From Escherichia coli (GTDB lineage Bacteria > Pseudomonadota > Gammaproteobacteria > Enterobacterales > Enterobacteriaceae): a DNA stretch of 64,000 nucleotides. A program made the position numbers and the translations under genes. The DNA is taken from the NCBI RefSeq assembly GCF_003019035.1, contig NZ_CP027447.1; one strand, 5' to 3'. Below, piece by piece: positions 1,952 through 56,770 of this stretch. The notes beneath the pieces are model-generated. The model did no database searches and had not been told where the DNA came from. It was given only the letters and a program-made list of their open reading frames with translations. Each line of letters starts with the position of its first letter. Position 1 is the stretch's first letter.

Positions 1952-2881
1952 TCATATCACGGGTGGAGTGTTAAGAACATACATAAATGGAGTCATGTTT
2001 TCCCTTTTCCATTTATCAAGTTCCTGTTGCCGTTTTAGTCCATCTCTAATTGCATATTTTAATTTTTCTGATAAATGGCATTGAGCATCGATTTCATTTA
2101 AAACAACTGTACACACTATCCCTGTCAGTAAAATTGCTCCTCCGACAAGAATTACTGGAAAGCCAAAGCTAACACAGGCAAAAGAAGCCAGGCTTCCAAT
2201 AGCGGTTGCAACACCACCGGCTATAACTGCTTTGGCCACATCCATTGAAAAATCGCCAAGAAAATTAACCAGATCTCGCTCTGAACTCATAATAAATTCT
2301 ATGGTTCTCCAGGCTACTGAAAACCAGATACAGAACTTAACTCCTTTTATTGATTCAGATAAAGCTCCTCGCCAGCCAATAGCGAGTTCCAGAACTTGAG
2401 GCGCTCGTGAAGAGAAAATATATTTACCGAGCTTTTCTAAAAGCCAGGGGCTGGATGTTGTGATTTTTATATATTTCTCTCCAAGTATTTCAAAGTAACT
2501 TGCTTTTGTATACTTTAAGGCATTAAGGTTAAATATAATTTTCCCATTGTCATCAAACTCAGTCATTAATTTACCCGCGTTAACTAACCAGGCGAGTGTA
2601 TCTTTTATACCTGAAGGATGTGTAGTGATAAAATGAATGTAATCAAATGATGTTATTGGGCTGAGTATTTTTTTTGCAACATCAAGTGTCAAGAGAATAA
2701 CATGATGAGTGTTCTGATGCCTTAACTCATCAATGAGTGGGACGTCGTTAAGATAAGGGTGCTGAGGTACTAGCTGGTTTATCGGCTGAGCCCCCCGAAG
2801 AATGTCACCCACATAATCAGCCCACTGTGCATTCTGTGTGTTGTTGTTATTCCTTAAACCAGCCATTTTATCTCTCCGCAA
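1952..2881 (-). CDS. Putative Hcp-associated T6SS cargo effector with C-terminal glycine-zipper transmembrane hairpin (YafU-like, full length)
   Basis: 309-aa ORF in AT-rich DNA immediately downstream of an Hcp paralogue (28-bp gap); C-terminal region AVIAGGVATAIGSLASF...FPVILVGGAILLTGIVCTVV has two glycine-zipper helices typical of membrane-disrupting toxins. Function inferred from context only. Confidence 0.5.
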   Translation of the reverse strand: MRRDKMAGLRNNNNTQNAQWADYVGDILRGAQPINQLVPQHPYLNDVPLIDELRHQNTHHVILLTLDVAKKILSPITSFDYIHFITTHPSGIKDTLAWLVNAGKLMTEFDDNGKIIFNLNALKYTKASYFEILGEKYIKITTSSPWLLEKLGKYIFSSRAPQVLELAIGWRGALSESIKGVKFCIWFSVAWRTIEFIMSSERDLVNFLGDFSMDVAKAVIAGGVATAIGSLASFACVSFGFPVILVGGAILLTGIVCTVVLNEIDAQCHLSEKLKYAIRDGLKRQQELDKWKRENMTPFMYVLNTPPVI

Positions 2882-2909
2882 TAGTAATTTATTATGTTAT
2901 TACAGTAAG

Positions 2910-3392
2910 TTACTGTACACGATCCTGCCATTTACTCATTGCATTCGTACCGGCTAACGTATGCTCCCAGGAAATATCTTCATAAATAAAGGCAATTCTC
3001 TCCTGTGGTTCCAGTTCTTTTTCCAGGACAGCATGCGGTGTGACAAAATCAATACTTGATATTCGGGCTTTTGACAGATTTATTTTATAATAAGGCTGGT
3101 AAATACCCGCTTTACTGGTTCGGTAGAGTATAAATTCACATAATGCCATTTTTTCATTGTCACTAAGTGCTTTTGCCAGCAATGGTGAGGATTTATCAAC
3201 CGGTTTGGTGATAATTAATTCATGATGATTGACATTTTGACTTCTTGAGATGGAATGCATTAACGCATAAACCATGATCTGATCTTTATGTTCTGGCTGC
3301 GCTTTGTTTCCGACAGAATCAAGCGTTGAGCAACCTGCTGAAATTAGCCCTTGTGTCTCTCCACTCAAAGATAAATAACTTATATTTGCCAT
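2910..3392 (-). CDS. Hcp-family protein (second, divergent Hcp paralogue)
   Basis: 160-aa ORF; N-terminal YLSLSGETQGLISAGCSTLDSVGN and C-terminal ISWEHTLAGT motifs parallel the main Hcp at 23478-23996 (YISITGQTQGNITAGAFTADSVGN ... IEWEHVKSGT). Confidence 0.7.
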   Translation of the reverse strand: MANISYLSLSGETQGLISAGCSTLDSVGNKAQPEHKDQIMVYALMHSISRSQNVNHHELIITKPVDKSSPLLAKALSDNEKMALCEFILYRTSKAGIYQPYYKINLSKARISSIDFVTPHAVLEKELEPQERIAFIYEDISWEHTLAGTNAMSKWQDRVQ

Positions 3393-53599: not shown

Positions 53600-54004
53600 A
53601 TGAAAACGGTCATCACCTTCGGCACCTTCGATGTGTTTCATGTCGGTCATCTGCGCCTTTTACAACGCGCCCGCACGCTGGGCGAACGGCTGCTGGTCGG
53701 CGTATCGTCCGACGCCTTAAATATCGCCAAAAAGGGCAGAGCACCGGTTTACCCTCAGGATGACCGCATGGCGATTATCGCCGGGCTGGCGTGCGTGGAT
53801 GGCGTATTTCTCGAAGAATCGCTGGAGCAGAAAGCGGAGTATTTGCGCGGGTACAGTGCGGATATTTTGGTGATGGGCGATGACTGGGCAGGGAAGTTTG
53901 ATAGCTTTGCGTATATTTGTGAGGTGGTGTATTTCCCCCGTACGCCGTCGGTGTCGACGACGGGGATTATTGAGGTGATTAGGGGGAAATCAGCAACCTA
54001 CTGA
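53600..54004 (+). CDS. Glycerol-3-phosphate cytidylyltransferase (TagD-like) encoded at the end of the lafK-lfiEFGHIJ operon
   Basis: 134-aa ORF starting 3 bp after lfiJ; nucleotidyltransferase HxGH motif (FGTFDVFHVGHLRLL) and C-terminal MGDDWAGKFD...CEVVYFPRTPSVSTTGI, closely paralleling Bacillus TagD as recalled. Confidence 0.8.
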   Translation: MKTVITFGTFDVFHVGHLRLLQRARTLGERLLVGVSSDALNIAKKGRAPVYPQDDRMAIIAGLACVDGVFLEESLEQKAEYLRGYSADILVMGDDWAGKFDSFAYICEVVYFPRTPSVSTTGIIEVIRGKSATY

Positions 54005-54052
54005 TTTAATTCCCGAAGTGAGAGAAGATGATGCCGTTTGGCTATGTTAAAT

Positions 54053-54155
54053 ATGTTTAAAAAATCGCGTTTTTTCGACATATCCCCAAAACATGTCGAT
54101 GGCATAAACGTATTCCAACGACATGTTTAAAAATCGCATTTTATCGACATATCCC
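54053..54155. repeat. Two about 34-bp imperfect direct repeats, each with internal dyad symmetry, between convergent TagD-like and glycosyltransferase genes
   Basis: atgtttaaaaaatcgcgttttttcgacatatcccc (54053-54087) and atgtttaaaaatcgcattttatcgacatatccc (54123-54155); the second overlaps the glycosyltransferase stop codon. Confidence 0.6.
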
Positions 54156-56612
54156 TGACGATTCCTTGCCCGCCAACGTCTCCACAATCACCATCGCCGC
54201 CCGTTCTCCCGCCTTGCCATCCATAAACGCATCGCAATAGTGATGACGAATCTTCGTAAGCCGCGCCTGCACCGCACCCCAGTCAAACGCCTCTGACAAC
54301 AAATAACGCAGTTCCGCAACATCATGAGCCACCGGCAATATTTCGCGGATTCGCTGGTCGGCGCTCTCCGGCGTGGAGTAGCTTTTCTCGCCGTCGAGCA
54401 ATTCACTCATGCCCGGAAAGTCGAGCAGGATCACCCGCTTATCGACATGGATAGCATCGAAAATAAAGCCGCTGTTATCGGTCAGCACGTAATCGGCCTT
54501 TGCCAGCAGCGCCAGCGTGTGGCGGGCGGAGTCGGTGCGCTGTTTTAAATGTCTGCGCGCGAGTGCCAGCGATGCAGTTTCTTCCGGGCGCGAGCAGGTG
54601 CCGTGGTGCAGTTTGCAAATCAGGTTCACATCATCGCTTAAGCGCCCCAATTTTTCTGCCCAGTGGGGCAGGGAGCTTAATGCGCCAAACGTTGGGGCGT
54701 AGAGCACCGTAGGTTTACGGGAATCGGGTTGAATATTTTCTGGCAGAATGCGGTCAAACGTGCCGTTATGCCAGGCGTCGAAGCGCGGGTTGCCGACTGC
54801 TTTTGCATTGCCGAAATGCGCCAGCGCCCGCTGGCTGTAGTGGCTGTAACACAAAATGCGCTGATAAAAACGGTTCCAGTCGGCGTGGTTCCACGTCTCT
54901 TTGGCTAAGCCGTACATGGCGCGAACGTTCACCGCTGCCAGGCCATTGAGCGCGGGCGTGTGGTAGGGGCTGACCAGGCATTTCACCCGCTGACCGTGTG
55001 CCTGCATTTCAGATAAGCGCATTCCTTTAAGCTGCGGATCGTCGATGCTTTTTAGCGTCTCCAGCATTTCATCCAGAAACGGTTTAAACACGCGGTCATT
55101 GATCACCAGTGTGCAGCTCTGCCCCTGCGCCTGTAGAGCGGTGATGATTGGGCGATACAGCGAGTAGTGGAATGAGGTTTCCATAAAAAAGCCGATGGTG
55201 TTGGCGATGGGGAATGCGGATGGTTTTGTAACTACGGGTAACTTATTGAAATAGTGACTAATGTTGTCGGTCACTTTTTTCTCGATGTCACTAAAGCCCG
55301 GTCGCTGATAACTAAGGCTCGGGTAACAGGCCAGCCATTTGTCGGCGCGCAGCAGCGGCTGCCAGCACTCTTCCAGCGAGTGCTCACCGTTGCCCATCTG
55401 CTGTGCCAGTTGCGGGTAGTAGCGGCTGTTCACCAGATAAGCACACACTTTGCGGCAGTCCCGCGCGTGCACCAGCCCCGGCAAACTTTTTAGCATCGTT
55501 CCCTGCGAAATTTCGCCGCCAAGGATCATCACCTGCCAGGGAATTTTCGCCAGGCTCGCCAGCAGCGTGTTCAGCACCTGAATATGTTTCTCCTGCTTGA
55601 GAATAACCGCGTCATCTTCCAGCAGCAGATAGTTTTGCCAGCCGTGCTGTTGCGCCAGGCGCAGCGCCTGCAAGTGCGACAGGCGGCGGCCCCGTTGACC
55701 GTTTTCATCTTCACAGGCGGCAAGGCGGGTGATTTTCTCGGGCGGAATATGCAGCAGTGCCAGTTCTTCACGGATCTGTTGTAAGCGATCCGGGCGTTTA
55801 TCCAGATTGATCAATACGACCTGATCGATCGCCTGATGGTTGATCGCCTGGTGATGAGTGGCGTTATGCAGACTCAGATAAGCATTGCGGAGCAGCGGAT
55901 CGCGGACGATATCCGTAAGCGCCGCGTTTACTGGCGTGCTGGCCCCGAGAATAAAGTCTTTATCAAAGGTGTTGTGGCTGTGCGAGATACACAAAATCGT
56001 GCGCTCGCCGGGCAGTTGTAGCGGGTTAGCGCTGAAATTGTCGGTGAAACTTTTCTCTTCGCCTAAATTGCAATCGTCATCGTAGCGGTGCTTTTTCAGG
56101 TAGTTACGGTGATAGCAAAAGGTGCCGTTGAGGATGTTATGCGGGCCGAAGCTGCGGCTTTGAAAGATGCGATTGATGTGGCTGTACCAGATGGGGATCT
56201 GGTCGGAACCGGAGATGAGCGCCCGGTTTTTTTGCATCATAGCGATGGTGTAAGAGATTTTATCTGCCGGGTAGTAGTCGTCATCGTCCATGCAGAGGAT
56301 GTATTCGCCGCGCGCCAGTTCGTTGAGCATATTGCGTTTTTTGCCCAGCGGCAGTTTTTCCGGGTGATGGATGTAGCGGATGTTGAAGGCTTCCTGTGTG
56401 CCATTGGTCAGGCGGTCGATGATGTGTTGATGGCTTTGCGGGGAATCGTCGAGGATGATGAGTTCGCGGCGGTCTGCCGGGTAGTCCTGATAGCGGTACA
56501 TATAAAGCAGGTACGGCAGGAATGCGCTGCGGTTCCAGGTTGGCGTGACGACGCTGACGAACGGTTTTTCGCGCTGGGTGGCGAGTGTTTTGATAATGGT
56601 TGGTGTTGGCAT
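54141..56612 (-). CDS. Large multidomain glycosyltransferase: N-terminal GT2-like, central GT25-like and C-terminal TagB/TagF-like CDP-glycerol glycerophosphotransferase domains
   Basis: N-terminus VSVVTPTWNRSAFL...ILDDSP...CMDDDDYY (GT-A/DxD); central VVLINLDKRPDRLQQI (GT25-like); C-terminus TVLYAPTFG...VLTDNSGFIFDAI (TagF-like). Start set at MPTPTIIK; the ORF-track extension to 56684 runs through a repeat element and is uncertain. Confidence 0.7.
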   Translation of the reverse strand: MPTPTIIKTLATQREKPFVSVVTPTWNRSAFLPYLLYMYRYQDYPADRRELIILDDSPQSHQHIIDRLTNGTQEAFNIRYIHHPEKLPLGKKRNMLNELARGEYILCMDDDDYYPADKISYTIAMMQKNRALISGSDQIPIWYSHINRIFQSRSFGPHNILNGTFCYHRNYLKKHRYDDDCNLGEEKSFTDNFSANPLQLPGERTILCISHSHNTFDKDFILGASTPVNAALTDIVRDPLLRNAYLSLHNATHHQAINHQAIDQVVLINLDKRPDRLQQIREELALLHIPPEKITRLAACEDENGQRGRRLSHLQALRLAQQHGWQNYLLLEDDAVILKQEKHIQVLNTLLASLAKIPWQVMILGGEISQGTMLKSLPGLVHARDCRKVCAYLVNSRYYPQLAQQMGNGEHSLEECWQPLLRADKWLACYPSLSYQRPGFSDIEKKVTDNISHYFNKLPVVTKPSAFPIANTIGFFMETSFHYSLYRPIITALQAQGQSCTLVINDRVFKPFLDEMLETLKSIDDPQLKGMRLSEMQAHGQRVKCLVSPYHTPALNGLAAVNVRAMYGLAKETWNHADWNRFYQRILCYSHYSQRALAHFGNAKAVGNPRFDAWHNGTFDRILPENIQPDSRKPTVLYAPTFGALSSLPHWAEKLGRLSDDVNLICKLHHGTCSRPEETASLALARRHLKQRTDSARHTLALLAKADYVLTDNSGFIFDAIHVDKRVILLDFPGMSELLDGEKSYSTPESADQRIREILPVAHDVAELRYLLSEAFDWGAVQARLTKIRHHYCDAFMDGKAGERAAMVIVETLAGKESSGICR

Positions 56613-56661
56613 GGTGTTTGGGTGAGTTAATGGGTGAATGTGATGAATGTGCGTGCTGATG

Positions 56662-56770
56662 CCCTCACCCCGACCCTCTCCCACAGGGAGAGGGAGAAAA
56701 CCAGCGCCGATTTTAACACCGTGCTCGATCGGTTCCCTCGCCCCTTTGAGGAGAGGGTTAGGGGGAGGGG
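56662..56770. repeat. Pair of inverted GC-rich repeat units (Box C-like family)
   Basis: ccctcaccccgaccctctcccacagggagaggga (56662-56697) and ccctcgcccctttgaggagagggttagggggagggg (56735-56770) in opposite orientation. Confidence 0.5.

Follow-up and report, generated by a model that had tools for sequence, protein, structure and literature searches.

The 64,000-nucleotide stretch of the Escherichia coli contig NZ_CP027447.1 that we analyzed (the window) contains an Escherichia flag-2 (lateral flagella) locus, in whose variable region 1 (VR1) a pair of dyad-symmetric repeats lies between two convergent glycosylation genes. These repeats are very probably the leftover of a toxin gene, sofic, and of its control region: two orphaned autorepression operators of SoFic, termed O2 and O3, which together with a stub of the sofic 3′-end make up the region 53998–54157. 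The evidence consists of homology to intact sofic loci, the deletion structure of the region, conservation of the operator array, and covariation of the operator motif with the recognition helix of the protein. Read in the sense of the fic gene, the canonical layout upstream of intact sofic is O3-[P′-O2]-[P-O1]-ATG, where P is the promoter segment and P′ its degenerate copy.

As operators, both repeats are assigned to the minus strand. Unit 1, which corresponds to O2, has the letters ATATGTTTAAAAAATCGCGTTTTTTCGACATAT followed by CCC (54051–54086), the dyad proper being ATATGTTTAAAAAATCGCGTTTTTTCGACAT at 54051–54083. Unit 2, which corresponds to O3, the most distal half-unit of the array, reads ACATGTTTAAAAATCGCATTTTATCGACATAT at 54121–54152, with CCC extending to 54155. 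A preliminary description of this DNA, made from the letters alone, reported two copies of about 34 bp some 70 bp apart, the second overlapping the stop codon of the glycosyltransferase gene. Both statements are borne out: the dyads are 32–33 nt long at a spacing of 69–70 bp, and the minus-strand stop codon (54141–54143) falls within unit 2. A repeat search aligns 30 nt of the two units at 90% identity with a start-to-start distance of 69, the units being one indel apart. The dyad symmetry of A-runs and T-runs that was also described is present in imperfect form; an inverted-repeat search gives 14-nt arms that are 86% complementary, with C/A and G/A positions that do not pair. In the fic sense O2 is ATATGTCGA-A5CGCGAT5-TAAACATAT, that is TGTCGA-N15-TAAACA. 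The segment between the dyads (54084–54120, minus strand), identified as P′ by comparison of the proximal and distal consensus sequences, carries the half-site ACATGTCGAT in inverted orientation at 54091–54100 and the half-site ATAAACGTAT at 54104–54113, and has the hexamers GGAATA and TGTTTT where the proximal unit has the −35 and −10 hexamers GTGACA and TATTAT. Since a 34-mer found no match in 100 shuffles, and TCGACATATCCC occurs twice where 0.19 occurrences are expected, the repeat pair is not due to chance. No further copies of the unit are present in the window.

When the 156-bp region was searched sensitively against 5,426 complete E. coli genomes, 107 of them proved to contain it in full. 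About 290 other E. coli genomes gave weaker matches to region positions 47–153, typically in eight places each. We considered these eight places as a possible dispersed repeat and rejected that interpretation; they are the tandem 70-bp units of a single array upstream of sofic. The preliminary description had named absence of the unit elsewhere as a point against its readings; the unit is found upstream of sofic in many genera. The most informative locus is that of E. coli EC974 (L004), in which a 358-aa fic gene occupies the same gap between the same two flanking genes, preceded by three units with a 70-bp period, the last of which ends at the fic ATG. This intact state was counted in nine E. 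coli genomes; the query used, the entire EC974 cassette, drew an overwhelming number of matches to repetitive extragenic palindromic (REP) sequences and was usable for this count only. An intact sofic cassette is found at the same position in the flag-2 locus of Pseudocitrobacter faecalis (L012).

The EC974 protein possesses the domains Fic_N, Fic and SoFic-like_C, the latter a winged helix-turn-helix (wHTH). It matches the PADLOC SoFic model (3.7e-121) and aligns end to end with the crystal structure of EcSofic, 9VJC (E = 7.5e-212); its match to Shewanella oneidensis SoFic (MloA/SO_4266) spans about 353 residues (E = 1.9e-149). SoFic has been described as an anti-phage abortive-infection toxin (PMC12249575), and its AMPylation target is EF-Tu (bioRxiv 10.64898/2026.07.09.737422). 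The reported antitoxin, AS1, is encoded by a small gene downstream, and cloning of EcSofic needed three lac operators because toxicity was otherwise too high (PMC12249575), which is consistent with a natural promoter that has three operators. In the MobH-type integrative and conjugative element (ICE) of E. coli STW0522-31 (L003, 1–142 and 354–1430), a second Fic-family gene lies directly downstream of sofic.

A scan with one genome per species yielded 79 loci, 38 of which are Enterobacterales orthologue loci (71–99% identity). In all 38 the units end exactly at the sofic ATG, with 1 to 11 unit matches per locus. The form usually returned by profile search has 2.5 units, namely a distal half-unit, a full distal unit and a proximal unit. 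Arrays occur in Escherichia, Pseudocitrobacter, Citrobacter, Atlantibacter, Pantoea and Erwinia, and also in Brenneria, Edwardsiella, Proteus, Morganella, Photorhabdus and Salmonella diarizonae. The upstream neighbors of the 38 arrays are unrelated to each other, sofic being the only constant partner. A 70-bp nhmmer profile built from the 38 proximal units finds two matches in the window, at profile positions 34–68 (O3) and 7–69 (O2 jointly with P′). The proximal consensus is GnCGTGACATGTttATngcATCGACATAttaTggcnATATGTCGATaAAAnngGnTTTTtTAAACATATG; the distal consensus has the same half-sites and lacks the GTGACA and TATTAT hexamers, and it is with the distal consensus that the window units agree. 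The general form of O is a dyad of 33 nt whose half-sites, TGTCGA-N15-TAAACA (or TCGACA), enclose a spacer made of an A-tract and a T-tract. A histogram of spacers between 10-mer inverted repeats was dominated by the divergent palindrome, and a count of hexamers resolved both geometries: 82 cases of convergent TGTYKA-N15-TMRACA and 112 of divergent TMRACA-N13-TGTYKA.

The sequence GTGACA-N17-TATTAT is located at −64 in about 30 of the 38 loci, is conserved in proximal units only, and is predicted to be a sigma-70-like promoter in P. A promoter scan detects it in P. faecalis; the same kind of scan finds no promoter-like site in 54005–54160, where only distal-type units are present. With a promoter at −64, transcription is predicted to begin at the left edge of O1, and the leader of about 29–30 nt would be the operator itself, with O1 spanning both the leader and the start codon, which sits in the right half-site of O1 (AAACATATG). 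No Shine-Dalgarno sequence was found upstream of sofic in loci L010–L045 (about 2966–3003); translation of sofic may start in an unusual way, or the repressor may occlude its initiation. Array expansions reach nine units in E. coli DA33133 (L002, 1501–2095) and 11 in Citrobacter sp. 18056 (L013, about 2266–3003), both with a higher-order period of 140 bp at 96% identity, which points to recent amplification by unequal recombination.

Two unusual array loci may be mentioned here. E. coli GPEC709 (L005, 1500–1625) has a relic of another type, about one unit without sofic, between two Xre-type helix-turn-helix (HTH) genes and next to an AbiEii toxin gene, followed by an 11–12-bp microsatellite (TTTTTTGGCA) in four to five copies. 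A metagenome-assembled genome (MAG) labelled Bacillota bacterium (JAEWTL010000073, L019) carries an Enterobacterales-type sofic (84% identity) with its array, and its upstream flank is that of the STW0522-31 ICE, which has a MobH relaxase; mis-binning or recent transfer is the probable explanation.

Alignment of the window with EC974 reveals what has been lost. Positions 53971–54018 hold the end of the cytidylyltransferase gene and the last fic codons with their stop (minus strand, 53998–54000). The sofic 3′-end remnant proper (53998–54048, minus strand) consists of three collinear blocks. The first, 53998–54018, encodes …LRELNQ*, its stop codon overlapping the last 7 nt of the cytidylyltransferase gene, and it is followed by two short blocks at 54019–54031 and 54032–54048, with deletions of 74 bp and 7 bp relative to intact sofic. 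In the gapped alignment the identities are 46/48, 12/13 and 17/17, and the same blocks are recovered with L010, L011 and P. faecalis. A deletion of 1,011 bp relative to EC974 has taken the rest of the reading frame and the promoter-proximal unit. Beyond it, 54049–54164 correspond to the two distal EC974 units (70/80 and 22/24 identities); the former figure is for the middle unit, to which O2 aligns in EC974, L010 and L011. What the window retains is therefore O3, P′ and O2 plus 51 nt of the broken sofic 3′-end. The relics of E. coli EC1 and AST20 are the same except that the 7 bp are still kept, indicating stepwise decay from one ancestral deletion.

At the other end of the relic, the window is collinear with P. 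faecalis from the 3′-end of the glycosyltransferase gene into O3 (156/174 identical). Relative to EC974 the right junction could be written as deletions of 207 bp and 7 bp; this was rejected, as the P. faecalis junction likewise lacks a bacterial interspersed mosaic element (BIME). EC974, with its spacer and BIME, represents the other arrangement, and what sets the window apart is a lost stop codon, TAA to TCA. As to membership of the SoFic arrays, the units match and are spaced head to tail at 69–70 bp, compared with a period of 70 in the DA33133 locus and 25 others. The array does not end at an intact sofic start codon in the window, the proximal unit and about 1 kb of reading frame being deleted. 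No sofic sequence was found elsewhere in the window by tblastn, and the eight relic genomes listed each have one such place, without a second array.

In our reading, a minus-strand sofic cassette once occupied the gap between the TagD-like cytidylyltransferase and glycosyltransferase genes of flag-2 VR1. A deletion of about 1 kb removed P-O1 and most of sofic, and later, smaller deletions shredded the 3′-end that remained.

The same gap has other contents in other strains. A BIME alone is found at the junction in about 575 E. coli genomes (L006), and in some E. coli strains IS621, of the IS110 family, lies within this BIME (NCTC11476; L007, 2286–3266). A 2.9-kb insert with three open reading frames (ORFs) is found in both genomes of the split-match class that were examined, those of the ST131 strain 2017_APHA (L008) and of strain AR_0104 (L009). 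In this insert (L008, 605–2993, and L009) three genes annotated as "hypothetical protein" take the place of sofic, and its right side has a spacer of about 100 bp and a BIME in common with the EC974 sofic cassette. All gap states part company directly after …GAGGTGATTAGGGGG. VR1 is known as a region of cargo integration, in which glycosylation genes are ordinary cargo (PMC6993521), and the varied contents of the junction fit this. The relic shows that flag-2 VR1 has hosted, and then lost, an anti-phage gene.

A hotspot of this kind, holding sofic, the 2.9-kb insert, IS621 or a BIME according to strain in a region with a published record of cargo integration (PMC6993521), lends some color to the suggestion that a small mobile or recombination element (MITE-, that is miniature inverted-repeat transposable element-, REP- or attC-like) delivered the glycosylation genes, the repeats being its ends or footprint. 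We regard this as barely credible. In 394 E. coli genomes and 38 other loci, all matches belong to tandem arrays that adjoin sofic, or else are evidently relics; as direct repeats, the units lie to one side of a single gene and do not flank a cargo; and the glycosylation genes are also present in loci without units (L006–L009). Nor does the unit show the many dispersed copies, terminal inverted repeats and target-site duplication of a MITE- or REP-like element. The idea of an element footprint, raised in the preliminary description, survives in one respect, in that the repeats are the footprint of the lost sofic cassette, although that cassette bore a defence gene and not the glycosylation genes. 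The unit as an independent mobile or recombination element does not survive, as it occurs only with sofic or sofic relics.

A further question is whether the dyads are conserved as DNA or as RNA structure. Mirrored positions were compared in 54 distinct O dyads: 97 changes affect one side only and one affects both sides, and the C/A and G/A mismatch positions are non-complementary in at least 96% of the 54 distinct units. It is therefore the sequence that is conserved, not the pairing. No Rfam 15 family matches, the best being RgsA with 15.2 bits where 88.4 are needed. RNA folding, a check proposed in the preliminary description, returns on both strands a centroid with a unit-1 hairpin and a 40-nt central hairpin, as the palindromes predict, with z-scores that are modest (−2.5 and −1.9).

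These hairpins might be intrinsic, possibly bidirectional, terminators of the convergent cytidylyltransferase and glycosyltransferase transcripts, both of which must end by some signal within the 136-bp spacer. The palindromes do fold on both strands, and the central hairpin of the minus strand ends in UUUU, 14 nt past the glycosyltransferase stop. We nevertheless think this unlikely, and the tandem bidirectional terminators envisaged in the preliminary description are not supported. A scan of 54005–54160 finds no terminator-like site on either strand; the stems are A/U-rich and contain the conserved mismatches, and they are not followed by a run of at least five U, so that the G+C-rich stem and U-run of a Rho-independent terminator are wanting. 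Compensatory covariation is absent, intact loci place the same sequences upstream of a gene and not downstream, and most flag-2 loci use a BIME here.

Tandem repeats directly upstream of a toxin gene and on its strand, in 2.5 to 11 copies, also recall systems of the ToxIN type. The 70-bp repeats could act as RNA, either as a type III-like antitoxin or as a processed small RNA that neutralizes SoFic, the window having kept two of them. This is highly improbable in our judgement. With the conserved promoter situated in the last unit, transcription is predicted to start downstream of the distal units; the half-sites are palindromic with fixed spacing and no compensatory change, and Rfam gives no match. 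Moreover, the SoFic protein binds homologous DNA in vitro, and Fic toxins modify proteins, EF-Tu in the case of SoFic.

The preferred reading, that the dyads are operators of SoFic itself, draws first on binding data from Shewanella. The S. oneidensis SoFic dimer was shown to bind the 100 bp immediately preceding its own ATG, and not a composition-matched control (bioRxiv 10.64898/2026.07.09.737422). The bound 100-bp fragment contains ACATGTCGAT-TGA-ATCGACATAA and TTATGTCGATAAAAGAAGGTTTTTTTAAAC, and reads …ACATGTCGATTGAATCGACATAAGCTCACCTCAATCTCTATTATGTCGATAAAAGAAGGTTTTTTTAAAC, with the same half-sites and A-tract/T-tract dyad as here. Secondly, the motif changes with the protein. Homologues of 55–58% identity from MAGs of other phyla have TGTCGA/TCGACA sites upstream with the N15 spacing kept, the ATG often lying within the last half-site. 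In remoter homologues, the wHTH helix is other than AKRQTASxYLK and other repeated inverted motifs are found upstream: TTACCyAT with the helix SRKTAAKYLS, AAAGGTATT with AKtQTASKYLN, and AACGAGGGC with GNxKTxGxYL. Tandem Repeats Finder detected no 70-bp arrays in homologues below 60% identity, where the same or a covarying inverted motif is present.

On these grounds we infer that SoFic binds exactly these dyads and represses transcription. A SoFic dimer would contact a dyad through its two C-terminal wHTH domains and so repress its own toxic gene, and the additional upstream copies would add cooperative or reservoir sites. The half-site centers are 21 bp apart, about 71 Å or two helical turns, which would fit widely separated wHTH domains. 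The pair of regulator binding sites considered in the preliminary description was only half right: the units do match conserved dyads upstream of sofic genes.

Another DNA-binding protein, whether a neighboring Xre-type HTH protein or a host factor, might be the true ligand. An HTH_3 gene lies just upstream of the nine-unit array of DA33133, and the relic unit of GPEC709 lies between two HTH genes. We hold this to be unlikely, since no upstream neighbor is common to the 38 loci while sofic is the sole constant partner, the motif covaries with the SoFic wHTH helix, and Shewanella SoFic binds the homologous fragment directly.

Several points weigh against autorepression by SoFic and a purely relict state of the repeats. 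Binding to the E. coli dyads is a deduction, and the Shewanella binding is at 100-bp resolution only. The covariation of motif and helix is stated without phylogenetic correction. What the dimer reads may be either the convergent N15 or the divergent N13 pair, or the two together, and the sole mapped precedent, CccR (discussed below), has a spacing of N26 and thus a geometry that is unlike the present one. With an HTH gene upstream of some arrays (L002, L005), another repressor could take part. Finally, the relic may keep a residual role, in weak termination or in binding SoFic encoded elsewhere in the genome; most probably, the orphan dyads of the window are non-functional leftovers.

That dyads alternate so rigidly, one every 35 bp, and that arrays expand to 9–11 units suggests a more speculative function, which we put forward as a long shot. 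The arrays might store inactive SoFic, dimers coating the DNA until they are released or activated on phage infection, and orphan arrays might persist as decoys in trans for SoFic proteins gained at another locus or as a signal and stop at the 3′-end of the glycosyltransferase gene. If this were true, the orphan arrays of the 107 E. coli genomes would have been kept since they are still of use.

Around the site, the window is 97–99% identical to E. coli E7-1N7, for which the RefSeq annotation gives fliJ, cytidylyltransferase, glycosyltransferase and lysine-N-methylase. The TagD-like cytidylyltransferase gene occupies 53600–54004 on the plus strand (Pfam CTP_transf_like, 1.3e-19). The family-2 glycosyltransferase gene is on the minus strand, its longest ORF in the ORF list being 54141–56684 (Pfam Glycos_transf_2, 4.7e-18, and the E7-1N7 annotation). 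The two are convergent, with 136 bp between the cytidylyltransferase end at 54004 and the glycosyltransferase stop codon.

Both genes bear the mark of the cassette at their 3′-ends. The last six codons of the cytidylyltransferase (KSATY*; 53986–54004 in the window, 345–363 in L004) are confined to loci where the sofic cassette is, or used to be, present, as judged by comparing the junctions of L004, L006, L007 and L008; in the other locus states, the protein ends in GLL* or GHF*. Together with the 7 nt that the sofic stop shares with the cytidylyltransferase end, this places the cassette junction inside the cytidylyltransferase ORF. In P. faecalis, the glycosyltransferase ends at an earlier TAA, which is TCA in the window (CCGTAAGG versus TCGTCAGG). 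The window gene passes that position and ends at the TAA in O3, giving a C-terminal extension into the relic (54141–54170, minus strand; …VIVETLAGKESSGICR*), as read from the sequence and from the alignment with P. faecalis. In EC974 and most E. coli, the protein ends VIVEALG* ahead of the BIME. The extended end (…AGKESSGICR*) is the form annotated by RefSeq in E7-1N7. The relic thus supplies the last codons and stop of the glycosyltransferase gene and forms the entire spacer between the convergent genes.

For the window itself the result carries little weight, an odd intergenic repeat being explained as the debris of gene decay. Its wider value is a concrete and testable operator for the SoFic family, the dyad TGTCGA-N15-TAAACA/TCGACA, of which three tandem copies normally surround a conserved promoter. 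Footprinting, reporter mutagenesis and co-crystal design can be aimed directly at the motif, at its spacing and at the helix covariation, and the operator is a sequence signature by which SoFic relics can be spotted in annotation. Autoregulation by Fic-wHTH proteins and, at low resolution, promoter binding by SoFic are already known; this work adds the operator at motif level, the tandem arrangement of 70-bp units, the way the motif covaries with the recognition helix, and the recognition of relics. A search of the literature library used found no described SoFic operator motif and no Fic protein in flag-2.

Among known systems, BIME/REP elements fill the same convergent-gene spacer in most flag-2 loci, as the units do here, but they are GC-rich, dispersed genome-wide and unrelated in sequence, whereas the units are A/T-rich and tied to sofic. 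The ToxI repeats of type III toxin-antitoxin systems resemble the arrays in being tandem direct repeats immediately upstream of a toxin gene. They are, however, transcribed and act as RNA, while the evidence here (the promoter in the last unit, and one compensatory versus 97 single changes) points to DNA sites.

A close relative is the promoter of S. oneidensis SoFic/EcSofic, which shares with the present system the protein family, the half-sites and the A-tract/T-tract dyad by the ATG, except that in the window the gene itself is gone. The published binding was localized to 100 bp with no motif named, and the array, the N15 and N13 spacings and the promoter are derived here. CccR of Yersinia pseudotuberculosis is an autorepressor that acts through 10-bp inverted repeats near the −35/−10 region spaced 26 bp apart, and its identity to SoFic is reported as 29% at 45% coverage (PMC9755527). 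Like SoFic, to which its relation is distant, it belongs to class II of the Fic proteins, forms a dimer and has its DNA-binding domain at the C-terminus, repressing its own promoter via widely spaced inverted repeats overlapping −35/−10. Its operator is a single copy of AGATAATCAT-N26-ATGATAATCT, in contrast to the half-site (A)TGTCGA(T), the N15 spacing between hexamers (or N13) and the at least three tandem copies found here; the dyads are thus not operators of the CccR type, the mechanism being analogous. The operators of type II toxin-antitoxin systems, such as the paired palindromes of YefM-YoeB, similarly place multiple palindromes over the promoter of a toxic gene, are bound by a protein of that system and exert negative feedback. 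SoFic differs in that the toxin itself bears the DNA-binding domain and in that the operators have been duplicated together with the promoter segment, in entire 70-bp units.

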